From an uncultured virus (IMG/VR IMGVR_UViG_3300025706_000025) (taxonomy: Duplodnaviria; Heunggongvirae; Uroviricota; Caudoviricetes): a DNA stretch of 20,000 nucleotides. Below the pieces are notes generated by a model. That model saw only the letters and a program-made list of their open reading frames with translations, did no database searches and was not told where the DNA came from. A program made the position numbers and the translations under genes. Location: the IMG/VR virus record IMGVR_UViG_3300025706_000025. One strand, written 5' to 3'. Below are positions 1 through 8,207 of this stretch, one piece after another (the stretch's first letter is position 1; every line of letters starts with the position of its first letter).

Positions 1-1622
1 GCCTGCTCGAACTGGCTGTCTTCCAACGTGGCGCGGTACGGCGTGCTGGTGATCACGATGTTGTACTCGCCGACCGTCAGGTCGTTGGTGATCTCACCGG
101 TGCTCTCATTGTACTGATTGACCGGAACTTCTTCGGCCGCCATGAGCAGATCGTCGTGGGTGATGTTGATCAGGCGTTCCTCGGTGTAATACTCCTGAAT
201 CATGTCGATCAGGTTCCGGGCAATCAGGAAGTCGGTGCGCTCCAGATTGTCCATCACCTTCGTGGTGTTGGTGCTGCCAGCCTGTTGCTTGGCCTGAATC
301 GCCTTGGCGGCCACGTCCTCGCGGTCGAAGCCCTGCATCGAGTCCGAGATGTTGCTGATCGTCTTGATGTGCTCTTCGGCCTTGTAGCTGATCCGGTCGA
401 GACCCTGCGGCGTGGCATTCGGGGTGATCTTCTCCGCGCCGGCGACGTCATCCAGCTCCAGCACGAGGCCGGTCGAGGCGCCCTTCTGCTCCAGTTCCTC
501 GATCGACATGTTCTTCAGGGCACCGGTTTTGATCTTCCAGCCGCTGTTCGCCGTGGTGTTCACGACGTGCAGCTCTTGGCTGGAAACCTTGTTCAGGAGT
601 TCCTGCGGCCCCAAGAGGTTTTCCACCAGCCCGATGGTGCGGCCGTAGCGGAAGTACGGGAAGTACGGAATGACCGTGAAGTGCTTGTACGGCGACCAAT
701 CGTCATGGAGAACGATGTTGTCGGCCGTGACAGTCCAGCGTATGCGTTTAACCAGCTTCTTGGTGGTCGATACTCGGCCGCCTGCTTTTTCGATGACGGA
801 GGCGATGCGATTTCGATCCCAGCTTGTCGGAATTGGTCGCATATCTCCTGTCTCAATATCGACGAAATGCAATTGCTTGTCGAGTTTTCGATATTGTCGA
901 TCGAGTACGCGAATGTTTCGGCGGACGTCGCTCGGATCAGTGACACCGTAATATCCTGCAAGCGGTAATACACCGCCGAATCGATCACGGACGCGTTCAA
1001 TGGAGTCGTAACCGTAGGGGAAAGAGGAACCATCTTTGAGCTTCAGGAGTTCTGCGTCATCTTCGGAATACAGGACAGCGATGTCCTGCGGCGTGGCCCA
1101 CTTGGTCGTGAAGACGTCGTTCCACTTGTCCGGGTCGTATTCCTCGGCATCCGGGTCAATCACGACGTTCTTGGAGTTGAGGTTCTCGATGCGCGCCTCA
1201 CCGATCATGCTGTCGGTGAAGTCGAGGCGGAGGTCAATGAAGCCTCGGCTGCGGATGACGCCGTCGGCGAACAGCTCAGAGCGCACCCATGGCAACTGGT
1301 TGTTCTGGGCGATCTGCTTGAAGACCTTCGTCATCGCGTCGGCAGTATCGGTGTTGGCGCCGGTGGACGGCCGCAGGATTGTCTCGCTGCGGTTGTAAAT
1401 CTGCTGGCCGAACAACGTGCCGAGCGTGCTGATGATCTTGTTGATCGTGATGGCGGGCCGGCGCTGGAGCGCCAGCGTGTTCAGGTCACTCTGTAACCAC
1501 TGATCGCCGGCGAAGAACTTGTCGCACTTGTCTGCCTTGTTGACGAATTCCAAATGGCCACGATCGCGGCAATACTGAAAGCGCATCCATTGCTCGCTGG
1601 CGATGTGGTTATTGACTGGCAT
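1..1622 (-). CDS. Portal protein, P22-like family (3' end runs off the window)
   Basis: Manual translation from ATG at 1622 (MPVNNHIASEQWMRFQYCRDRGH...FFAGDQW...RRPAITINKI...IDPDAEEYDPDKWNDVFTTKW...HFTVIPYFPYFRYGRTIGLVENLLGPQELLNK...) is open to position 1. The GDQW, RPxxTINKI and PQxxxNK motifs match P22-like portals, and the gene lies downstream of terL. It is missing from the ORF track because it has no stop in the window. Confidence 0.92.
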   Translation of the reverse strand, partial: MPVNNHIASEQWMRFQYCRDRGHLEFVNKADKCDKFFAGDQWLQSDLNTLALQRRPAITINKIISTLGTLFGQQIYNRSETILRPSTGANTDTADAMTKVFKQIAQNNQLPWVRSELFADGVIRSRGFIDLRLDFTDSMIGEARIENLNSKNVVIDPDAEEYDPDKWNDVFTTKWATPQDIAVLYSEDDAELLKLKDGSSFPYGYDSIERVRDRFGGVLPLAGYYGVTDPSDVRRNIRVLDRQYRKLDKQLHFVDIETGDMRPIPTSWDRNRIASVIEKAGGRVSTTKKLVKRIRWTVTADNIVLHDDWSPYKHFTVIPYFPYFRYGRTIGLVENLLGPQELLNKVSSQELHVVNTTANSGWKIKTGALKNMSIEELEQKGASTGLVLELDDVAGAEKITPNATPQGLDRISYKAEEHIKTISNISDSMQGFDREDVAAKAIQAKQQAGSTNTTKVMDNLERTDFLIARNLIDMIQEYYTEERLINITHDDLLMAAEEVPVNQYNESTGEITNDLTVGEYNIVITSTPYRATLEDSQFEQ

Positions 1623-1803
1623 AGATGTCCTTGATCTTGGTGTAAAGCTCGCGTAGTTCGTCTTCCGACATTTGCTGCAAGTCCGGTTTCTTCCACACGT
1701 TATGATTGCCCCATGCTTCGGCTATCAATGCGGCGTAGTCGCCTCGGGTTAATTCACGCGGTACGCCGGCCCCCCGAACGGCGTCCACGAGCATTTCTTT
1801 CAT
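1609..1803 (-). CDS. Small hypothetical protein (64 aa)
   Basis: ATGA overlap with the upstream gene at 1800-1803. Its 3' end overlaps the portal start, so it fits the operon. Confidence 0.7.
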   Translation of the reverse strand: MKEMLVDAVRGAGVPRELTRGDYAALIAEAWGNHNVWKKPDLQQMSEDELRELYTKIKDIYASQ

Positions 1804-2153
1804 CGCAAGAAGCGCAACTTGTATGCGGTGCTGGCGATCAGATCGCGGATTTCATCGAGGGTGTTGAGCAAGTTGCTGTCGGATGCATCGAGGCCTTTGG
1901 CGCACTCGTCGACGCATTCACGCAAGTCGTCCATGAGCAAGATCGGGTCGGAATACGGAGAGTATTTCGCCGGGTAGCTGTCAATCAGCGCATGCTCGCC
2001 TTGGTATGCTTCGGCGAGGCCGTCGACCAAATCGATGATTCCTTCATAGAATCCTTGGAGAGCGACGTGCTGTGCGTACGACCGGCTCTTCAGGTGAAGG
2101 ACATGCGCCGTGGTGCGCGCATGGAAAAGCTCCATTACCAGTTTCCCGATCAT
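1800..2153 (-). CDS. Ferritin/Dps-like four-helix protein (DUF5856-like), 117 aa
   Basis: MIGKLVMELFHARTTAHVLHLKSRSYAQHVALQGFYEGIIDLVDGLAEAYQG carries the H-x6-Y-x2-H-x-AL-x2-FY...D-x3-E pattern of Dps-like proteins and ends in YKLRFL. Start set at ATG 2153 (GGAG RBS, ATGA overlap with upstream gene). Confidence 0.78.
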   Translation of the reverse strand: MIGKLVMELFHARTTAHVLHLKSRSYAQHVALQGFYEGIIDLVDGLAEAYQGEHALIDSYPAKYSPYSDPILLMDDLRECVDECAKGLDASDSNLLNTLDEIRDLIASTAYKLRFLR

Positions 2154-2476
2154 TTCGGCTCCACGATTTCCCAAGCGACGACAGAAGTATCCGTGGCGTC
2201 TGCGGAAGTGATGGTGAACGAAGTGCCGACGACGCGAGCGGTCACGGCCATGGCCTTGGCAGCGGTCACGGTGCCGAGGGCTTGTTGTTGCAAGAAGATT
2301 CGGGAGTTGGCCGTCACGATGGAGGAGTTGATGGTAGCGGTGCCGGCCACCAGCGTGGCCACGCCCATGGCGGAATCCGCGTCGCCTTCCTTGATCTTGT
2401 CGCCGTCGCCGTTACGCGAGGCGGGCGGGTCGTAGTTGTCGTTTCCGATGTAAGGGCTGGAGTTCGTTTTGCTCAT
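2150..2476 (-). CDS. Putative small virion protein (Thr/Ala/Val-rich beta-strand domain), 108 aa
   Basis: ATG at 2476 preceded by GAAAGGA. GVATLVAGTATINSSIVTANSRIFL...GTSFTITS...DTSVVAWEIVEP resembles beta-rich domains of phage fiber/decoration proteins. Confidence 0.65.
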   Translation of the reverse strand: MSKTNSSPYIGNDNYDPPASRNGDGDKIKEGDADSAMGVATLVAGTATINSSIVTANSRIFLQQQALGTVTAAKAMAVTARVVGTSFTITSADATDTSVVAWEIVEPK

Positions 2477-2516: not shown

Positions 2517-5222
2517 TTATGCCGCCATGTGTGAGGTCTCGCCGGCCCCCTCAGTGAAAGCGCCGAGCTTATCACGCCAGCTCTTCGTTTTCGGTGGCGG
2601 CTTCGGTCGGGGTGCTGAGCGGGTAAGCGTCAGGCGCACGCACCACGCCGCCGCATCGACTTGGTCGTCGTGCTTGCCGGCCGGGAATGTCATCAGCTCA
2701 CGTACGAACGCGCCGGTCCACGCCTCGTCCTTCTTGATGAACACCTTGTGCAGCTGCATCCGGCCCTTGAGCGGGTTTGCCCGCACCAGTTTGTCCGTCA
2801 GCGGCTGGAGAATCTCGAAGGTGGTGTAGTGCTGGCGCTCAAGGCAGCGCTTCTCGTACTGCGCCCTGATCGACTTGAAAATCTGCCCGTCCTCGAAGCC
2901 CAGCAAGTCTGCGCCCCAGTTGATGCTCTGGTCAATCATGTGCTCGACGATCGCATTACCGTCGTCGGAGCGGAAGCGCAGGACGTGCAGCACGTAGAGG
3001 TTGTCGAACTCATCCTGCCCGATCGTGCAGCAGACCGTGTAGTCGTTGTGGGTGGCCTCGGTGATCGCGAAGTCCCATGCCTGATAGATGAACATGTTCC
3101 GGCGCTGCGGAGCATGCACGTAGTAGTGGATCATCTCCTTGCTGAAGTAGATACCGTCGTCAGGCGTCGGGTTCTGCTGGTACAGCGCCTGCCACACCCG
3201 CTTCTGGCCGCTGGCCACGAGGTTGCGCTTGATCCGCAGCATCGCCTCGGTGTCGTAGCGCGCCGGGTGGATCGCCGTGCCGCGCGGCCGGGTGAGCTTC
3301 GCGCCTTCCGGGATTGTGGATTCCGGGGCGTACTGCACGATGCTGTCGTCGAGCAGCAGATACTCGTCGCCCTCGTCGTTGATCGCCGGGTACTTGATCA
3401 CCTCGAAGACGTCGCCGTCGCCGCTGGCCATCACCTGCTGAATCTTCCCGGCCCAGTCATCTTCGTTCCACCACGTATTCGAAACGCATAAACCGTTCGC
3501 GATGAAATTCGTCGTTCTATCAACCTGAATATCGAAAACCTCCTCCACGCCGTCCGGCTCTATAGACAGAATTTCACTTAGCGTGAAGTCCGAGGTATCG
3601 TGCAGCGGCTCGTGCGACGGGCTCAGTTCTAATATGTCCGATTCCGGCGTTGCAGTCGTTGCAGAGTAGGCCCCTGACTTTGCCAGTGTCGTGGCAGTGG
3701 TCGACTGCGAGGGCGTAGTTCCACACGCTTGGGTTGCGTCGTCCGTCCCCCTTACAAATGGCGCAGACACCTCCTTGCTGTTCGAGAAGCGCGTCGTAAT
3801 CTGCGAGAGTAATCCCGTAGCGATGCTTGAGCCGCGCTTCACGGCGCTTCTCCCAATCGACAGCGCTCGGGCTACGGTGCCCGTCCGCCCAGCGTTTCTT
3901 CCCATAGTGCGAGTCGCATAACCCCCTGCATTTAGCCGGTTTGTCGCACCCTTCAACAGAACAGGATGTTCCCTTCCACTTTCCCCACTGCCCTTTAAGG
4001 TTACGATTCTGTTCGCCGTACTCAAGCTTCTCGCCCTGATCCATTTTAGTTCTCCGGTCGCGGTTGTCGCCAAAAACGGGTGTCTTCCGTTTGCCCGCAC
4101 CACTTTACCAGAAATCATCGTGATTTTCAGCACGGAATCAGGCCCGACGCTCTTTTGCTTGTCCACTCTGGTCGTCGTCAGCTTACCGTTCTCGTAGGTA
4201 GCGATCATGTCGTCTCCACGGATGAGCGCAAGTGGTTTTTCCGTGCCGTCCGCCATCATCACCGGTGTATCGCCAGTCATGCACATGATACCCAGCACAC
4301 CGCCGCCGGGGGCGAGGCGGGTGTATGCCGTCGAGCCATACCACTCCCACGTGTTTTCCCGGATCGTCGGGCTGTCCGCGGCCTCGATGTCCTTTACGAG
4401 GTCATCAAGCAGAAGGATGTGGGCGCCGCGGCCGGTAATACCGGTGCCGACGCCGGCCGCCATGTAGCCACCGCCAGACAGCGTGTTCCAGTTTTCAACG
4501 CTCTGGCTAGTCGGGTCAAGGCGCATGTCTGGAAAGAGGGCTTGGAAGCTCGGGTCACGGGTGAGATCACGGATATACCTCGAAAAGGACAGGGTCAGGG
4601 ACGATGTGTGGCTGGCAGCGATGATTTCCCACTCTGGGTGCTGCCCGAGCACCCACGGCGGGAAGTGCCTTGATCCTAGCTCGCTCTTTCCAGAGCGCGG
4701 GGGCATCATCAGGAGCAGGCGCGGGGACTGGCCCGCCTCAACCTGCTGCATGAACCGCTCCAGCCGGCGGCATATGTCCTCATGCACCCACCCGGCCATG
4801 TATTTCGGGCGGTAACGCTGCACGAACGGCAAGAAGCGCCGGCGGCACAGCGCCCGGTGGGCCATTTCCTTCTCCGGGTCTGCCTCTGCTTCCTTCAGAT
4901 CGAAGGCCGGGGCGGCGTAGGGCAGCTCGAAGGCCTCGTCAAGCGCCTGCTGAAGGGCGGGATTCGACGCCTTGGGTATCTTCGGGGTGGCTGGCTCTGT
5001 CTGGGGTGCCTTCTTGGCTGCGCGAGCGGCGGCGAATGAGTCCGTACCGAGCGGCCGAACGATGATTTCCGGGTATTTCGAGACTTTGGCCGGTGGTTCA
5101 GCGGGTGCCGGGGGCGGTACGCCGGCGTCGACACAGAATGGGCACTGTCCATTGGCATCCAGCGTCGAGGTTTCGCGCTCTGTCTCACAGGTAGAGCAGG
5201 GAGTGAAATCATTCGTCGACAC
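2517..5222 (-). CDS. terL: Terminase large subunit precursor, intein-containing (901 aa; ~632 aa after splicing)
   Basis: Walker A MPPRSGKS, Walker B ILLLDD preceded by GITGRGAH, QALYQQNP, RNase H-like nuclease motifs AWDFA, DKLVRA and FPAGKHDDQVDA. Removing the intein rejoins GGGVLGIM|TWWNEDDWAG, the usual terminase coupling-motif region. Confidence 0.97.
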   Translation of the reverse strand: MSTNDFTPCSTCETERETSTLDANGQCPFCVDAGVPPPAPAEPPAKVSKYPEIIVRPLGTDSFAAARAAKKAPQTEPATPKIPKASNPALQQALDEAFELPYAAPAFDLKEAEADPEKEMAHRALCRRRFLPFVQRYRPKYMAGWVHEDICRRLERFMQQVEAGQSPRLLLMMPPRSGKSELGSRHFPPWVLGQHPEWEIIAASHTSSLTLSFSRYIRDLTRDPSFQALFPDMRLDPTSQSVENWNTLSGGGYMAAGVGTGITGRGAHILLLDDLVKDIEAADSPTIRENTWEWYGSTAYTRLAPGGGVLGIMCMTGDTPVMMADGTEKPLALIRGDDMIATYENGKLTTTRVDKQKSVGPDSVLKITMISGKVVRANGRHPFLATTATGELKWIRARSLSTANRIVTLKGSGESGREHPVLLKGATNRLNAGGYATRTMGRNAGRTGTVARALSIGRSAVKRGSSIATGLLSQITTRFSNSKEVSAPFVRGTDDATQACGTTPSQSTTATTLAKSGAYSATTATPESDILELSPSHEPLHDTSDFTLSEILSIEPDGVEEVFDIQVDRTTNFIANGLCVSNTWWNEDDWAGKIQQVMASGDGDVFEVIKYPAINDEGDEYLLLDDSIVQYAPESTIPEGAKLTRPRGTAIHPARYDTEAMLRIKRNLVASGQKRVWQALYQQNPTPDDGIYFSKEMIHYYVHAPQRRNMFIYQAWDFAITEATHNDYTVCCTIGQDEFDNLYVLHVLRFRSDDGNAIVEHMIDQSINWGADLLGFEDGQIFKSIRAQYEKRCLERQHYTTFEILQPLTDKLVRANPLKGRMQLHKVFIKKDEAWTGAFVRELMTFPAGKHDDQVDAAAWCVRLTLTRSAPRPKPPPKTKSWRDKLGAFTEGAGETSHMAA
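3477..4283 (-). mobile_element. Intein (Hint domain, 269 aa) in TerL
   Basis: Block A CMTGDTPVMMADG starts at Cys314, block B is VRANGRHPFL, block F is EEVFDIQV, block G is NFIANGLCVSN, followed by +1 Thr. The element is in frame with both exteins. Confidence 0.94.
3574..4044 (-). CDS. Endonuclease VII-family HNH (putative homing) endonuclease nested out of frame within the intein, 156 aa
   Basis: YGITLADYDALLEQQGGVCAIC...LAVDHCHDTGKVRGLLCNDCNAGIG is the recombination endonuclease VII signature. It has an N-terminal CSVEGCDKPAKCRGLCDSHY Zn-finger-like motif and its own RBS (CCGGAGAACTAAA-ATG). Confidence 0.93.
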   Translation of the reverse strand: MDQGEKLEYGEQNRNLKGQWGKWKGTSCSVEGCDKPAKCRGLCDSHYGKKRWADGHRSPSAVDWEKRREARLKHRYGITLADYDALLEQQGGVCAICKGDGRRNPSVWNYALAVDHCHDTGKVRGLLCNDCNAGIGHIRTEPVARAAARYLGLHAK

Positions 5223-5718
5223 GGGTGCTCTCTCCCTCTATGGCTGTGACACGCCCAGCGATGATGTCGAACAGCTCGGCATCCGTCATGGACTCGTATT
5301 TCGATTGCAGACGCTTCTGGCTGCCAGAGATTTCCAGTTTCTTGACCTCCGGTGCATACAAGCCCAGCACTTTCGCCGTCTCGGACCAGCCCTTGATCAT
5401 GCTGGCCGGGTCTGCTGCCAGCTTGGCCATGTTGATGGCCTCCATGAACCCATCGATGACGTCCGCCCGTGTGATCTGAGAGGCGCTGGACAACTCGTCT
5501 CGCGCCGCCGTCAGTGCCCGCTGCACGGCGACCGTCTTTTCGACTGCATTTCCCTGCGCTATCGGTCTTGCATACCCGGCCGCGCGGGCGGCAGCGATAT
5601 TGTCTTTCCCCAGCATCTTGGCATCCACGAAGGCGGCCTGCTGCTCGGTGAGAAGAATCGACTTTGGACGTTCCGCCGTGATCGGTTTCTCCTTGGACTT
5701 CGGTTTCGCTCTCGCCAC
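5209..5718 (-). CDS. terS: Terminase small subunit
   Basis: LTEQQAAFV...NIAAARAAGYA HTH-type motif and ITRADVIDGF...AKVLGLY, typical of small terminases. It lies directly upstream of terL and overlaps it. Confidence 0.87.
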   Translation of the reverse strand: MARAKPKSKEKPITAERPKSILLTEQQAAFVDAKMLGKDNIAAARAAGYARPIAQGNAVEKTVAVQRALTAARDELSSASQITRADVIDGFMEAINMAKLAADPASMIKGWSETAKVLGLYAPEVKKLEISGSQKRLQSKYESMTDAELFDIIAGRVTAIEGESTRVDE

Positions 5719-5746
5719 TCGATTACTTCCTGAAAAAATTTCAAAA

Positions 5747-5752
5747 ATTATA
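5747..5752 (-). promoter_or_regulatory. Perfect sigma70 -10 box (TATAAT) upstream of terS
   Basis: Minus-strand TATAAT ~29 nt upstream of the terS start, in AT-rich DNA. The -35 element is poor. Confidence 0.4.
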
Positions 5753-5843
5753 CGAGAGAGTCATTCTAAAAGATAGGGTATGCCACTTGGGTAAAGAATC
5801 CACGGGAAAATTTTCAAAAAATATAGCGGTTTGAAAAAAAAAA

Positions 5844-5902
5844 TGAAAAATATTGAAACGGCGTGGATTTCGAATTGAAAAATATTGAAACGGCGTGGAT
5901 TT
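5844..5902. repeat. 27-bp perfect direct repeat, 2 copies
   Basis: TGAAAAATATTGAAACGGCGTGGATTT at 5844-5870 and 5876-5902. Confidence 0.95.
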
Positions 5903-5995
5903 ATCCGCGGTAGTGCCCTCCCCCTCCGTCCCAAAACCCGTACCCCACTTCGGATTCGGTTTCGGGTTTCTGGGAAAGGAGTCTCTTGACTGGCA

Positions 5996-6038
5996 GTCCG
6001 CTCGTCCCTCGCGGACGTCGTGCGTTGTGGTGTGCAGA
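5996..6038 (+). promoter_or_regulatory. Conserved hairpin element, copy 1 (putative phage early promoter or leader)
   Basis: GTCCGC-TCGTCCCTC-GCGGAC hairpin followed by GTCGT-N6-TGGTGTGCAGA. It is repeated at 7318-7360 and precedes the first + strand gene. Confidence 0.6.
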
Positions 6039-6075
6039 GGAAGATTGGCTTCCTCGTCCATCAAGGAGAAACACC

Positions 6076-6336
6076 ATGACCCGCATCACGAAGAATGAAT
6101 TGGTTGCCATCAATGCACGTCTGTCCGCCGAGGTTGCCGAGCTGCGTGCGCAACTGTCTGCCGCCAAGGTGCAGCGCCACGTCGAGAGCAACGTGCGCCC
6201 CACCAAAGAGCACGAGTATGCGACCCGTGAAGAGGCGATCGCCGCGTGCAAGCGCTTGGCTTCGACCGAGCTGATCAGCCGCGCGAGCATCAGCGTGGTT
6301 GGCAACACGGTGATCGTCCGCGCACGCGCACATTGA
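6076..6336 (+). CDS. Hypothetical protein (86 aa, N-terminal coiled coil)
   Basis: AAGGAG RBS, then ATG 6076 (MTRITKNELVAINARLSAEVAELRAQL...). Confidence 0.8.
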   Translation: MTRITKNELVAINARLSAEVAELRAQLSAAKVQRHVESNVRPTKEHEYATREEAIAACKRLASTELISRASISVVGNTVIVRARAH

Positions 6337-6390
6337 TTAACCAGCAGGAGGGACATCTGTCCTTCCTGAACTACTGTCACGGAGAATTAC

Positions 6391-6537
6391 ATGACAAATC
6401 TTCTCAGGGAAATCCAGTGGGAACAGAGCGGACGCTTCTGCGACCTTGACGACACGTTCTGCTTGCGCATTCACCATGGTGATTGGTGCGAGTGCCAAGC
6501 GAACATCACGTTCCTCGCCGGTCTCGGCTACGTCTAG
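6391..6537 (+). CDS. Hypothetical protein (48 aa)
   Basis: GGAGAATTAC-ATG start. Translates as MTNLLREIQWEQSGRFCDLDDTFCLRIHHGDWCECQANITFLAGLGYV*; below the ORF-track cutoff. Confidence 0.7.
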   Translation: MTNLLREIQWEQSGRFCDLDDTFCLRIHHGDWCECQANITFLAGLGYV

Positions 6538-6546
6538 GAGAATCAC

Positions 6547-6774
6547 ATGTCAGGCATTATCGACAACAACGGTGTGCAATGGGAACACTGCACGGTATGC
6601 GGCACCATGGTGCGGCTAGACGATCTCGGTTACGAGCCACCGAGCGAGCAACACAAGCACGGGCGTGACATCTGTCTTTCGTGCACCAATCAGCACGACG
6701 ACATAGAGTCAATCGTTCCTGCTCACAGGTGGGTCGCTCAATACGAAGGAGAATCACATGACACGGCGTTCTGA
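6547..6774 (+). CDS. Putative Zn-finger protein (75 aa)
   Basis: TAGGAGAATCAC-ATG start; CTVC...CLSC pair. Confidence 0.75.
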   Translation: MSGIIDNNGVQWEHCTVCGTMVRLDDLGYEPPSEQHKHGRDICLSCTNQHDDIESIVPAHRWVAQYEGESHDTAF

Positions 6775-6904
6775 TTTCTCGCCTTACTCCAAACTGATGT
6801 TCCAGTTGTTTGGCAGTCCGCTTGGCGTCGCTGCCGAACTCAACGTCTTCGTCGATGACTACGGCGACTACGTTGTTACTTCGCACACCACATGGTGGTA
6901 TTGA
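6758..6904 (+). CDS. Hypothetical protein (48 aa)
   Basis: AAGGAGAATCAC-ATG start. Translates as MTRRSDFSPYSKLMFQLFGSPLGVAAELNVFVDDYGDYVVTSHTTWWY*. Confidence 0.65.
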   Translation: MTRRSDFSPYSKLMFQLFGSPLGVAAELNVFVDDYGDYVVTSHTTWWY

Positions 6905-6906
6905 GC

Positions 6907-6981
6907 ACATGACGCTGACATGTGTCCGTCGATGATTTTGTGCATCGCGAAACATGACGCTGACATGCATGTCGGCGTCAT
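6907..6981. repeat. 16-bp direct repeat plus 28-bp near-perfect palindrome
   Basis: ACATGACGCTGACATG at 6907-6922 and 6952-6967. ATGACGCTGACATG|CATGTCGGCGTCAT (6954-6981) is palindromic with one mismatch and no loop. Confidence 0.9.
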
Positions 6982-7250
6982 TTTCATGCTATGACAGATT
7001 CATTATGACAAACAAATATGGAACAATGTTCCGAGTTTCAAAACTTCAGCGGCAGAACAATATTTACTTATTCTCTACCTTTCTTTTATTATTTTATGTA
7101 ATTGAAAGTAGTAGTAGTAGTTATAAATAATAAAGAGAGTAATAAATACAAGCACTTAGCGTGTCTTTTGTTCCGTATCTTAGTCACTTTTCGACCCTCA
7201 AAAACGGCTCGGAGACTGCCTATTATTTAAGCACACCTCGGCCGTCGCAA

Positions 7251-7295
7251 TGTTAGTGGTCACTAACAAGTGGAACAAGGTTAGTGGTCACTAAC
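7251..7295. promoter_or_regulatory. Tandem operator-like palindromes GTTAGTG-GT-CACTAAC
   Basis: Identical 16-bp palindromes at 7252-7267 and 7280-7295 (28-bp period), just upstream of hairpin element copy 2. Confidence 0.7.
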
Positions 7296-7317
7296 TTGAG
7301 AATTATTACATCGTCAT

Positions 7318-7360
7318 GCACGCTCGTCCCTCGCGTGCGTCGTATTTATTGGTGTGCAGA
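7318..7360 (+). promoter_or_regulatory. Conserved hairpin element, copy 2
   Basis: GCACGC-TCGTCCCTC-GCGTGC hairpin followed by GTCGT-N6-TGGTGTGCAGA, with the same spacing as 5996-6038. Confidence 0.6.
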
Positions 7361-7389
7361 TAATACGTCTGCATATCTAGGAGAATCAC

Positions 7390-7659
7390 ATGCCTGTCCT
7401 TAAATCCATTCTTTCCCCTGTGTTGGGTGTTGCTGTTATCTCTGGCCGTGGCCTCAAGAGCACGCTTGCTAGTACGCCAGCCAAGTTGAAATACCGTGTG
7501 CCACGCGCTGCTCGTTTTGTGACACGTGGTGTTGCTATGGTTGCGGGCGGCGTGGTTGGTATCACCGTTGCACCTTTGATTGAAGTTGTCATTGGCGCTA
7601 CCGTCGGTATGCGTCTCGCTGAAATCACCGTTGATCATTTTCTTCCTGTTGGAGAATAA
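7390..7659 (+). CDS. Hypothetical membrane protein (89 aa)
   Basis: TAGGAGAATCAC-ATG start; hydrophobic Gly/Val/Ala-rich C-terminal half. Confidence 0.75.
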   Translation: MPVLKSILSPVLGVAVISGRGLKSTLASTPAKLKYRVPRAARFVTRGVAMVAGGVVGITVAPLIEVVIGATVGMRLAEITVDHFLPVGE

Positions 7660-7661
7660 CC

Positions 7662-7949
7662 ATGTCCGTCATGCTTAGTTCGGTACTCGTCTTTGGCTTG
7701 CTCACAGCGGCTGTTGAATTCATGCTGCTGTATAAGTTCATGCCGCTTCGTTGGCTTACCAAAAAGCCTGTTCAAGCTGTGCTGCACATCGGTGTAGCTG
7801 CTCTCAATTTGGCCATCCATTGGGGAACGATCGTCGGCACGATGACAGCAATCACAGCTTTGTTCGTCAGCTTCGTTACCGTGCCTGCTGTCATTGCTTC
7901 ATTGACTTTCGTCTATACGTGGAAGCATTCGAATGAAACCACATCTTGA
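7662..7949 (+). CDS. Hypothetical multi-TM membrane protein (95 aa)
   Basis: GGAG RBS; about three hydrophobic segments. Confidence 0.75.
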   Translation: MSVMLSSVLVFGLLTAAVEFMLLYKFMPLRWLTKKPVQAVLHIGVAALNLAIHWGTIVGTMTAITALFVSFVTVPAVIASLTFVYTWKHSNETTS

Positions 7950-8007
7950 AGACGCTGTTATATATCTCGTCATCTTGATTGGCATCATTTACCTGCTTTC
8001 TACTTAG
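7933..8007 (+). CDS. Possible 24-aa single-TM peptide
   Basis: MKPHLEDAVIYLVILIGIIYLLST* fills the gap between two genes, and its stop overlaps the next RBS (TAGGAG). Confidence 0.5.
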   Translation: MKPHLEDAVIYLVILIGIIYLLST

Positions 8008-8015
8008 GAGTTGAA

Positions 8016-8207
8016 ATGGCACGTCCAGTTGATTTCGAACGATCTGTCGACGCTGTTCCCTTTGAATGGCTTGGCAGTACAGAGTACGACCCGTTGCATA
8101 TTCTCTTGCAGCGGGAGCTAGACCGGAGTGATGACCCGGAGCAAGACAACGTCATCTATTTCTTGGGCAATTCGCCCGTAACCAAGCGTCATCAATCTTC
8201 AAACTGA
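8016..8207 (+). CDS. Hypothetical protein (63 aa)
   Basis: AGGAG RBS; operon context. Confidence 0.7.
   Translation: MARPVDFERSVDAVPFEWLGSTEYDPLHILLQRELDRSDDPEQDNVIYFLGNSPVTKRHQSSN

Follow-up and report, generated by a model that had tools for sequence, protein, structure and literature searches.

An endonuclease VII-type nuclease gene overprinted in the -1 frame of a phage terminase intein

How can one stretch of DNA be read through as part of a terminase and at the same time hold an intact nuclease gene in another frame? The question is posed by the window analyzed here, a stretch of 20,000 nucleotides from an uncultured virus, in which the ORF listing gives a single minus-strand ORF of 901 aa (2517-5222) for the large terminase subunit (TerL). 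A preliminary description had proposed that this ORF contains an intein overprinted by an endonuclease VII gene, and its coordinates all held on re-reading of the sequence. The TerL protein matched Terminase_6N (E 3.8e-11) and Terminase_6C (E 6.9e-6) in Pfam, and phrog_38, terminase large subunit, in PHROGs (E 7.5e-104). The GC content of the window lies between 0.45 and 0.61, and the weak DNA matches of the extein are to Pseudomonas phages. As part of the overall explanation set out below, we consider it probable that the window is a piece of a tailed-phage genome in which a composite selfish element has lodged in the gene for the large terminase. The intein accounts for 269 of the 901 residues, so that spliced TerL would comprise 632 aa. 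The host gene and its parts are:

2517..5222, minus strand: TerL precursor ORF, terminase_6 type, intein included (ORF, Pfam, phrog_38)
4284..5222, minus strand: N-extein, 313 aa, ending ...GGGVLGIM (sequence and junction comparison)
2517..3476, minus strand: C-extein, 319 aa plus stop, starting TWWNEDDW (sequence and junction comparison)
3477..4283, minus strand: class-1 intein, 269 aa, Cys1...Ser-Asn followed by Thr+1 (PF14890; mini-intein matches in Foldseek)
3984..4283, minus strand: N-terminal splicing half, residues 1-100, with invariant His68 (pLDDT 90-97, beta strands; conserved columns)
3477..3611, minus strand: C-terminal splicing half, blocks F and G, ...EEVFDIQV...NFIANGLCVSN (pLDDT 92-98; homologues)

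With Cys (TGC, 4283-4281) as its first residue and Asn (AAT, 3479-3477) as its last, the intein has 269 codons (807 nt); the next residue is Thr. That a Hint-type intein resides inside TerL, as first proposed, was borne out by a match to Intein_splicing (PF14890; 42.3-46.6 bits against a cut-off of 35.8, E 8.7e-11 to 4.1e-12), by two confidently modeled Hint halves and by the Foldseek search with the intein model, for which the top 54 PDB matches had E <=0.001, with DnaB, DnaE and RecA mini-inteins ranking first (best E 2e-9). The class-1 residues are all present, namely the N-terminal Cys1, block B His68, the C-terminal Asn269 and Thr+1, and the intein alignment (A2) revealed C1, G4, T6, N65, H68, P69, F70, L71, W81 and L87 to be invariant. 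The C-terminal splicing half was 48-76% identical to that of 88 other loci, the IMG/VR part of which represents the best 80 of 290 matches. The penultimate His of block G is absent from the window intein, which ends in ...GLCVSN as compared to ...GLVSHN in 66 of 68 relatives. This His is usual in inteins, though not obligatory. Judged from the sequence, the Ser-Asn end in place of His-Asn could slow Asn cyclization in the window intein. Inteins of the type found in Gordonia phage Nordenberg, which occur in plaque-forming phages, likewise end in Ser-Asn and lack the penultimate His.

Between the splicing blocks, the same strand holds a second ORF, offset by +2 (equal to -1) relative to the TerL frame, which runs from ATG 4044-4042 to TAA 3576-3574 and encodes 156 aa:

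3574..4044, minus strand: nested -1-frame gene for a 156-aa endonuclease VII-type (His-Me finger) nuclease, stop included (PF02945, structure, dN/dS)
3592..3837, minus strand: endonuclease VII catalytic core, residues 70-151, with C94, C97, D115, H116, H118, C128, N129, C131 and N132 (Pfam, T4 alignment, conserved columns)
3907..3963, minus strand: N-terminal Cys3-His zinc-finger-like module, C28, C33, C43 and H46 (near-invariant columns in A1; weak PF24906 match)

Profile searches of both frames placed PF14890 in the TerL frame and Endonuclease_7 (PF02945) in the nested frame, the latter at E 8.2e-22 with 77.3 bits against a cut-off of 23.6 over residues 70-151. Together with the purifying selection reported below, this match confirms the claim of an intact endonuclease VII in the -1 frame. 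PHROGs assigned the ORF to endonuclease VII as well (phrog_2914, E 1.7e-29), and alignment with T4 endonuclease VII (1e7d, E 5.8e-5) paired CAIC with CLIC, VDHCH with LDHDH and CNDCN with CNLCN. T4 endonuclease VII also took structural ranks 1-3 in Foldseek (probability 0.99) when searching with the nuclease model, which had a pLDDT of 88.3; these matches had E values of 0.04-0.07 and a TM score of about 0.30 over 77 columns, and only about 77 residues superpose. The two proteins thus align in the His-Me finger core and the Cys4 zinc site, but the T4 enzyme (gp49; PDB 1e7d, 1en7, 2qnf) is a free-standing, structure-specific resolvase, and the nested protein has the Cys3-His module as an N-terminal extra. 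We take the Cys4 zinc site and the D-H-x-H...N residues to have the same roles as in T4 endonuclease VII. The corresponding core columns, CxxC, DHxH and CNxCN, were invariant or nearly so in 54 nuclease sequences (alignment A1). For the N-terminal module, the match to the PF24906 zinc finger was weak (E 0.002, under the cut-off), and the module may bind zinc or DNA. As had been suspected, standard annotation overlooks the nested gene, with a CDS annotated in none of five phage records, and the nuclease is an example of a gene invisible to standard annotation.

Could the offset be a sequencing or assembly artefact, in which two compensating indels conceal an intein with an in-frame nuclease? 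Indels do occur in such data, as seen from extra frameshifts in the related contigs L064 and L120. To this possibility we assign a negligible probability, given how widely the arrangement recurs. In a locus set combining phage records with IMG/VR, the same +2 offset with both frames open was seen in 88 of the 89 loci having all three pieces (the IMG/VR part being the best 80 of 290 matches). Intein-nested copies also occur in prokaryotes of several phyla (22 of 67 genome contigs, 21 of them with the usual arrangement), and the offset is common to five independently sequenced cultured phages, Angelicage, Nordenberg, Phlyer, Vincenzo and Chandler. Among 30 longer endonuclease VII proteins (274-2000 aa), none had a Hint or terminase Pfam domain that would mark an in-frame fused form, which is weak evidence in the same direction. 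L064 and L120 themselves were considered as in-frame intein-nuclease fusions and rejected, since the C-terminal intein half and the C-extein lie in other frames, as does the N-extein of L064. These contigs thus have the usual architecture plus one or two extra frameshifts, reflecting decay or indel errors, that break TerL and restore no clean in-frame intein. The out-of-frame arrangement is real and not an artefact.

Frame-resolved selection was analyzed in 70 distinct loci, with dN/dS computed over 75 pairs. Entropy at nuclease codon positions 1, 2 and 3 was 0.92, 0.80 and 1.48 bits, and mean pairwise amino-acid identity for the nuclease, intein and third (unused) frames was 0.54, 0.32 and 0.30, respectively. 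In the same order, dN/dS was 0.15, 1.37 and 1.72, values to be read with the bias of dN/dS in overlapping frames and the phylogenetic non-independence of the loci in mind. These comparisons indicate that selection acts on the nuclease protein across the family. The complementary part of the overlap is formed by the following features:

3660..3980, minus strand: intein-frame 'linker', residues 102-208, off-frame text of the nuclease gene without stops (pLDDT, entropy, dN/dS)
4000..4044, minus strand: dually constrained overlap, nuclease codons 1-15 over intein residues WIRARSLSTANRIVT (entropy)

In the AlphaFold model, linker residues 102-208 had pLDDT values below 50 and no secondary structure, flanked by the two confident Hint halves. 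Variability in the linker region was highest at intein codon position 2 (70 distinct loci), and the dN/dS of the intein frame is near that of the untranslated third frame, in agreement with the initial suggestion that the stretch between the splicing blocks is off-frame text. The entropy over 4000..4044 is flat across the three codon positions, unlike in the remainder of the ORF. Synonymous shuffling of codons in the window's nuclease ORF left the intein frame without stops in only 14% of 500 trials. Across the family it was open in 70 of 70 distinct loci versus a mean of 20% in shuffles, with zero intein-frame stops in every locus against 1.47 expected on average, while the third frame contained 11 stops in the window and 3-25 across loci. 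These data show that openness of the intein frame exceeds chance and that this frame is under stop avoidance only.

The same data bear on the idea that the window's nuclease, or the entire element, is a decaying relic, inactive or immobile, and retained only because TerL does not tolerate a stop in the intein frame. The loss of the penultimate His would fit such a state, and so would the fact that the closest sampled intein and nuclease, among the matches listed, are only 64-69% identical to those of the window, for which reason recent transfer of the window element is not demonstrable. Moreover, a dN/dS value specific to the window cannot be computed, because every pair including it falls short of 72% nucleotide identity in the nuclease ORF. 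Nevertheless, the ORF is intact and retains C28, C33, C43, Y76, G77, C94, C97, D115, H116, C131 and Y150, every invariant column of the 54-sequence alignment, along with its ATG and GGAG. A neutral ORF of 156 codons would soon gain stops, and family-wide the nuclease frame is strongly purified. We therefore view decay as quite unlikely.

How the nested gene might be translated is suggested by its start region:

4052..4055, minus strand: GGAG Shine-Dalgarno of the nested gene, formed by intein Gly-Glu codons (sequence; conservation in relatives)

The GGAG (4055-4052) lies 7 nt 5' of the nested ATG. A Shine-Dalgarno-like tetramer was present 4-11 nt 5' of the start in 56 of 70 distinct loci, and where the intein has a Gly codon at -11..-9, this was GGA or GGG in 56 of 60 cases, compared to a background of 39%. 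The proposal that the gene has its own Shine-Dalgarno and start is hence supported by conservation of both in relatives. An alternative route would be programmed -1 ribosomal frameshifting from the TerL/intein frame, yielding the nuclease as a fusion. The nuclease frame is indeed the -1 frame, and its window copy has 20 stop-free codons 5' of the ATG, such that no stop codon there would block a frameshift fusion. In many relatives, however, a nuclease-frame stop occurs 0-6 codons 5' of the start, making a fusion impossible there; in L040, L043, L065, L073 and L075 it directly precedes the start. ATG or GTG and the Shine-Dalgarno are conserved at a fixed 7-nt spacing, and the 60 nt before the ATG, read by eye, lack a canonical X XXY YYZ heptamer. 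Folding of the start region (4005-4095, minus strand) gave no sign of a regulatory hairpin, with an MFE of -15 kcal/mol and a z of +1.17, 177 of 200 shuffles folding equally well or better. Frameshifting thus appears very improbable, and internal initiation is the route suggested by the conserved start and Shine-Dalgarno together with the stops directly upstream in relatives.

We next turn to mobility. The closest TerL alleles among the matches listed, 81-97% identical, lack both intein and nuclease. Intein-less alleles have the predicted empty insertion site and read GGA ATC ATG|ACG TGG TGG. In an extein tree of 28 rows, the window and four intein-less alleles form one group (SH-aLRT 99); across this tree, the presence of the intein needs 7 changes, at least 5 of them forced by well-supported branches, a number not lower than in label shuffles. 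L041, L046 and L048 have an intein and nuclease that are 76-84% identical within exteins of only 33-35% identity. GC content was 0.631 in the extein (GC3 0.815) versus 0.554 in the intein (GC3 about 0.63). The intein-less closest alleles and the lower GC of the insert fit a mobile element, and the sporadic distribution, unit-wise transfer and GC contrast suggest that the nested nuclease may be a homing endonuclease. Since free-standing nuclease relatives with the same domains exist, it is plausible that the element arose when a free-standing nuclease gene invaded a mini-intein. The location within a packaging gene raises a different possibility, that the endonuclease VII serves the phage by trimming branched DNA before packaging or as an HNH partner of the terminase. 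T4 endonuclease VII (gp49) acts in packaging, and HNH proteins are said, in 2014 work by Kala and colleagues, to be components of phage packaging machines. Such a service is unlikely, given that the nested nuclease appears dispensable, its closest TerL alleles carrying neither intein nor nuclease, that it invariably accompanies the intein, the pair moving as a unit between TerL genes 33-35% identical, and that Phlyer, Vincenzo and Chandler each have a distinct gene for a RuvC-like resolvase in the vicinity.

Taken as a composite homing element, an intein plus a -1-frame nuclease at the TerL ATPase C-motif, the locus can be explained in four steps, and we consider this account likely to be correct. 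TerL would be made as a 901-aa precursor, in which the Hint halves fold around a disordered linker of ~107 residues and the intein splices itself out, leaving active 632-aa TerL. In the -1 frame, the linker DNA would provide the 156-aa nuclease, with its zinc-finger-like module and endonuclease VII core, by internal initiation on the TerL message and independently of splicing. Upon co-infection, the nuclease should cut an intein-less TerL gene at or near GGN ATC ATG|ACG TGG TGG, and repair should copy intein and nuclease into the cut allele; this homing step is suggested by the patchy occurrence of the element, its transfer as a unit from one divergent TerL gene to another and lower insert GC. 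Finally, selection would preserve the nuclease protein, with the intein frame requiring only freedom from stops. The out-of-frame state would be evolutionarily locked, because any single indel that fuses the frames breaks the essential TerL gene.

For the window copy, the splicing step draws on a homologue. According to the accessible part of Kelley et al., 2016 (mBio, PMC5050341), the TerL6-f intein of Mycobacterium phage Chandler gp6 spliced quickly in a reporter, and the TerL6-f site corresponds to the ATPase C-motif of terminase_6 TerL; the nuclease is not described in that part of the paper. The window intein sits at the TerL6-f site, as seen from the Terminase_6N/6C matches and a junction homologous to that of Chandler gp6 (...Q|CMTGDT...SHN|TRW). 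Both inteins are homologous, share the insertion point and contain the same nested -1 ORF, but the Chandler intein has 254 aa and ends in His-Asn, as opposed to 269 aa and Ser-Asn in the window. By analogy, the window intein probably splices as well.

The architecture is not new, and the initial caution regarding novelty was justified: as far as the accessible text of Gosselin et al., 2025 (bioRxiv 10.1101/2025.01.02.630785) goes, out-of-frame endonuclease VII in TerL inteins of the same family was first described there, for Gordonia and Mycobacterium phages within the scope of PhagesDB. The window shows the arrangement of that report: its nuclease ORF is flanked by the splicing blocks, shares their strand and is read in 'frame 3' relative to an intein frame that contains no stop, and the insertion site and CMTGDT...N|T(R/W)W junctions are the same. 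Identity to that family was 51-54% for the nuclease, 57-63% for the N-terminal and 64-72% for the C-terminal intein half; in tblastn, the terminase genes of Angelicage, Affeca, Keitabear and Sedona matched the nuclease at 51-52% identity over 97% (E 2e-40 to 3e-40). It differs in its Ser-Asn C-terminus and in host gene lineage, the extein being only 26-34% identical to Gordonia and Mycobacterium phage TerL. Within the limits of the portion available, the window is thus an additional, non-actinophage-like member of the element family of Gosselin et al. The present data widen the 2025 actinobacteriophage description by IMG/VR matches (the best 80 of 290 examined), by prophage copies in several bacterial phyla and by frame-resolved selection.

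We somewhat favor a broader reading, in which the arrangement is no rare or short-lived curiosity of actinobacteriophages and all copies descend from one ancient, 'frame-locked' overprinted mobile element; this would be the most widely distributed known example of a homing nuclease translated separately inside an intein. On this reading, the offset, the junctions and the dual-use Gly-Glu/Shine-Dalgarno start would have been kept despite divergence to below 50% identity, while the element spread through phages and prophages of many phyla, among them Pseudomonadota, Bacillota, Chloroflexota, Verrucomicrobiota, Actinomycetota and candidate phyla radiation lineages, and the out-of-frame state would persist since no single indel can fuse the frames without killing the essential terminase. 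A nuclease gene that is probably still translated separately, rather than as an intein domain, lends support to a 'splicing domain first, nuclease later' origin of inteins. Phages of Gordonia or M. smegmatis could offer a tractable system for internal initiation within a translated ORF, and a small nuclease with a conserved target in the terminase ATPase C-motif could yield useful site-specific nucleases.

Several known systems resemble parts of this arrangement. In the fractured genes reportedly described by Dassa and colleagues in 2009, a free-standing nuclease gene lies between split intein halves, as in the window, but the host gene is said to be split into two ORFs, while the window's host frame continues uninterrupted through the nuclease gene. 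The dnaX intein with an overprinted nuclease shares an overlapping frame between splicing blocks, a sporadic distribution and the dN/dS contrast, with low values for the nuclease frame and high ones for the intein frame; it differs in its LAGLIDADG nuclease, its cellular host gene and an intein unrelated to that of the window. Two further papers treat inteins just generally or for dCTP deaminase (PMC5418858, PMC6293099). Lastly, Arsenault et al., 2025 (Genes, PMC11855218) describe ShiLan, an insertion into phage DNA methylases that conceals an out-of-frame HNH. There too, the host frame is stop-free through an insert that really encodes a nuclease in another frame. Lacking a splicing domain, the ShiLan insert stays in the host protein, whereas in the window a Hint domain would remove it.

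A phage packaging module lies on the window's minus strand, with an intein in its terminase large subunit (TerL) gene and an endonuclease VII-type ORF nested within that intein.

Packaging module of the window
5209-5718, minus strand: small-terminase-like ORF
2517-5222, minus strand: 901-aa TerL ORF with Terminase_6N, Intein_splicing (PF14890) and Terminase_6C; phrog_38 terminase large subunit, E 7.5e-104
TGC 4283-4281 to AAT 3479-3477, minus strand: intein of 269 codons, followed by Thr
7 nt upstream of the nested-ORF ATG, minus strand: GGAG
ATG 4044 to TAA 3574, minus strand: nested 156-aa ORF in frame +2 (= -1); Pfam Endonuclease_7, E 8.2e-22
Within the module, minus strand: two small ORFs
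3-1622, minus strand: portal gene; phrog_156, E 1.8e-91

The intein, from TGC to AAT, coincides exactly with the coordinates of the preliminary description. The profile check proposed there, with Hint/intein models and PF02945, assigned PF14890 to the 901-aa ORF and Endonuclease_7 to the nested ORF (77.3 bits; cut-off, 23.6). Together with matches to PHROG endonuclease VII families (E down to 1.7e-29), this bears out the reading of an intact 156-aa nuclease gene in the other frame. Between TerL and the portal gene, a 124-aa ORF (1800-2174, minus strand) matches phrog_858 'starvation-inducible transcriptional regulator' (E 8.8e-23), an unusual passenger for a packaging module. The stretch separating the module from the plus-strand replication genes (5741-8200), a possible divergent promoter or regulatory region, holds only short ORFs that lack a PHROG match; GC falls to 0.449 at 7001-8000.

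When the nested protein was searched by tblastn against 50,697 phage records, the best matches came from Gordonia and Mycobacterium/Mycolicibacterium phages, within their terminase genes (rows H26-H64, 51-54% identity), including an older Pipefish record with the gene labelled 'hypothetical protein'. The first free-standing nuclease, from a Synechococcus phage, had only 40% identity. Five cultured phages (Angelicage, Nordenberg, Phlyer, Vincenzo, Chandler) likewise have the nuclease match offset by +2 from the annotated TerL start, and none of their records has a CDS for the nested ORF, so standard annotation does miss it, as had been anticipated. The Vincenzo TerL annotation bears the note 'homing endonuclease in intein' with no separate CDS; its annotators suspected a nuclease, which is actually out of frame. 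Within IMG/VR, 290 stretches encode a relative, the best 80 of which were retained. N-extein, N-intein half, nuclease, C-intein half and C-extein were placed by tblastn in every locus, yielding 89 loci, the window included, in which the nuclease and the two intein halves are all present. For this set, with its IMG/VR share drawn from the best 80 of 290, 88 of the 89 loci combined a +2 offset with an uninterrupted intein frame and no stop in either frame, and the same-strand frame used by neither protein (the third frame) contained 3-25 stops. Prokaryote genome contigs contributed 67 relatives. Among these, 22 were nested copies in TerL inteins, 21 having the clean +2 architecture, on contigs labelled Sulfuritalea, Oleiphilaceae, Kistimonas, Endozoicomonas, Bradyrhizobium, Caulobacteraceae, Geobacteraceae, Oribacterium, Dysosmobacter, Clostridiaceae, Anaerolineae, Opitutaceae, Mycolicibacterium, Microbacteriaceae, Saccharimonadales, Berkelbacteria and others; the remaining 45 were free-standing and had the catalytic core alone in common. 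Judged from these sequences, the out-of-frame architecture is conserved and not an artefact. One complete TerL with intein and nested nuclease (L112) sits on a 3.9-kb contig labelled as part of a Candidatus Iainarchaeum archaeon MAG (DPANN), which may mean either an archaeal virus or a binning error.

Two loci looked like exceptions to this architecture. In L064 (1326-3403) and L120 (2220-3462), the N-intein half is joined in frame to the nuclease, and the C-intein half and C-extein occupy a different frame, as does the N-extein of L064. Both turned out to have the usual layout with one or two extra frameshifts that break TerL and reflect decay or else errors in sequencing. Loss of TerL through a single indel, as these two loci illustrate, would keep the nuclease locked in its frame.

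To see which frame is under selection, 70 distinct nuclease ORFs were aligned by codon. For the first, second and third positions of the nuclease codons, entropy averaged 0.92, 0.80 and 1.48 bits, and therefore the second position of the intein codons is the most variable. Translated in the nuclease frame, the intein frame and the otherwise untranslated third frame, the loci had mean pairwise amino-acid identities of 0.54, 0.32 and 0.30. Median dN/dS (Nei-Gojobori; 75 pairs at 72-98.5% nucleotide identity, the window in none of them) was 0.15, 1.37 and 1.72, respectively, values that are biased in overlapping frames and come from loci related to one another. Sliding-window entropy was flat across the first ~15 nuclease codons, which overlie the conserved W-x-R...L...IV residues of the intein and form a short, truly dual-coded stretch; downstream, the nuclease phase dominates. 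The intein frame was open in 70/70 loci, as compared to a mean of 1.47 stops and 20% open frames after synonymous-codon shuffling (14% for the window's own shuffles). No stop avoidance was seen in the third frame, with 13.7 stops observed vs 12.8 in the shuffles. Purifying selection on the nuclease and stop avoidance in the intein frame are what had been predicted for the per-frame comparison.

The Shine-Dalgarno motif reported within the intein codons, GGAG in the window, recurs among the relatives: 56/70 loci have an SD-like tetramer whose end is 4-11 nt upstream of the first start codon, the spacing peaking sharply at 7 nt. It rests on the conserved Gly-Glu of the intein, whose Gly codon at -11 to -9 is GGA in 41 loci, GGG in 15, GGC in 3 and GGT in 1; across these TerL ORFs, 39% of Gly codons are GGA or GGG. 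Alternatively, the nuclease could be produced as a frameshift fusion. Such a fusion is excluded in the many loci where a nuclease-frame stop lies 0-6 codons upstream of the start. No unusual RNA structure was found at the nuclease start region of the window. Taken together, these observations best support internal initiation as the probable way in which the nuclease is made.

A nuclease model built on a 54-sequence alignment (pLDDT 88.3) had T4 endonuclease VII as its top three PDB matches (probability 0.99; E 0.04-0.07, TM ~0.30 over 77 columns), and sequence alignment to the T4 enzyme (E 5.8e-5) matched up CxxC, DHxH and CNxCN. Conservation is complete or nearly so in these columns and in an N-terminal Cys3-His module, previously described as Zn-finger-like. 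A subgroup of ~190-236 aa (e.g. L071:2240-2947, L068:254-823) carries one or two additional N-terminal zinc-finger-like modules (C-x4-C...C-x2-C/H), in correspondingly longer inteins of 300-341 aa.

The intein model, built on the intein alignment, reached pLDDT 90-97 for residues 1-100 and 92-98 for the last ~40 residues. Its PDB matches (54 at E <=0.001) are mini-inteins, the best being Ssp DnaB (E 2e-9). Residues 102-208 were modelled below pLDDT 50 and devoid of secondary structure; therefore, the intein-frame translation of the nuclease gene is predicted to behave as a disordered tether. Kelley et al. (2016, PMC5050341) placed the insertion site in the ATPase C-motif, named it TerL6-f and reported rapid splicing of the Chandler gp6 intein in a reporter. 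Chandler has the same nested ORF as the window. Junctions are conserved, with Cys1 in 67/68 loci and His-Asn followed by Thr in 66/68. The main oddity of the window's copy is its end (3477-3494, minus strand), GLCVSN before Thr as compared to GLVSHN in the 66 relatives, in which Ser replaces the penultimate His and an extra codon lies two positions upstream. Nordenberg, a plaque-forming Gordonia phage, likewise ends in Ser-Asn before Thr (GLEVSN), and by this analogy we take the ending to be tolerated in the window's intein. As Nordenberg-type phages are not especially close relatives of the window, the Ser-Asn ending may have arisen more than once.

Out-of-frame nucleases in phage inteins, mentioned in the preliminary description, are indeed in print for this very family. 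Gosselin et al. (bioRxiv 10.1101/2025.01.02.630785) name a cluster that includes Angelicage (printed 'Angelicase'), Affeca, Keitabear and Sedona, exactly the best nuclease matches of the window among phage records, and propose that a free-standing nuclease gene invaded an intein. From the same authors' group come reports of an HNH hidden out of frame in a phage methylase (PMC11855218) and of a cyanobacterial dnaX intein with an out-of-frame nuclease and frame-specific dN/dS, the latter crediting Gorbalenya 1998 with the first proposal (bioRxiv 10.64898/2026.09.14.751524). From these three descriptions, both the concept and the TerL-intein endonuclease VII family are therefore already published. 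Their main text was not found to cover a range wider than actinobacteriophages, the conservation of a dual-use SD and start, figures on selection and stop avoidance in this family, or the frame-lock argument. Our data confirm the out-of-frame nuclease and support the composite-element interpretation, the window adding a member of a recently described kind hosted by a non-actinophage-like TerL.

Among the loci examined, the closest TerL relatives of the window (L005, L006, L008 and L010; 81-97% amino-acid identity) have no intein, reading GGA/GGG ATC/ATT ATG and ACG TGG TGG on either side of the insertion point. An extein tree of 28 rows grouped the window with these four (SH-aLRT 99) and needed 7 changes in intein presence, at least 5 being forced by well-supported branches; intein labels on this tree clustered no more than shuffled ones (155/500 shuffles as low). 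Three loci (L041, L046, L048) share 76-82% identity in the splicing parts and 78-84% in the nuclease, and only 33-35% in the exteins. Nuclease identity exceeded extein identity by >0.30 in 58/1711 pairs. Intein and nuclease thus travel together. GC of the insert is 0.554 (GC3 ~0.63) vs 0.631 (GC3 0.815) for the extein, and the intein-less kin, repeated changes in intein presence, joint transfer and GC contrast would all fit homing. For an intein-containing allele (L009/L028), identity to the window is 86% in the N-extein and only 65% in the C-extein, a possible sign of recombination at the intein or close to it, e.g. a co-conversion tract.
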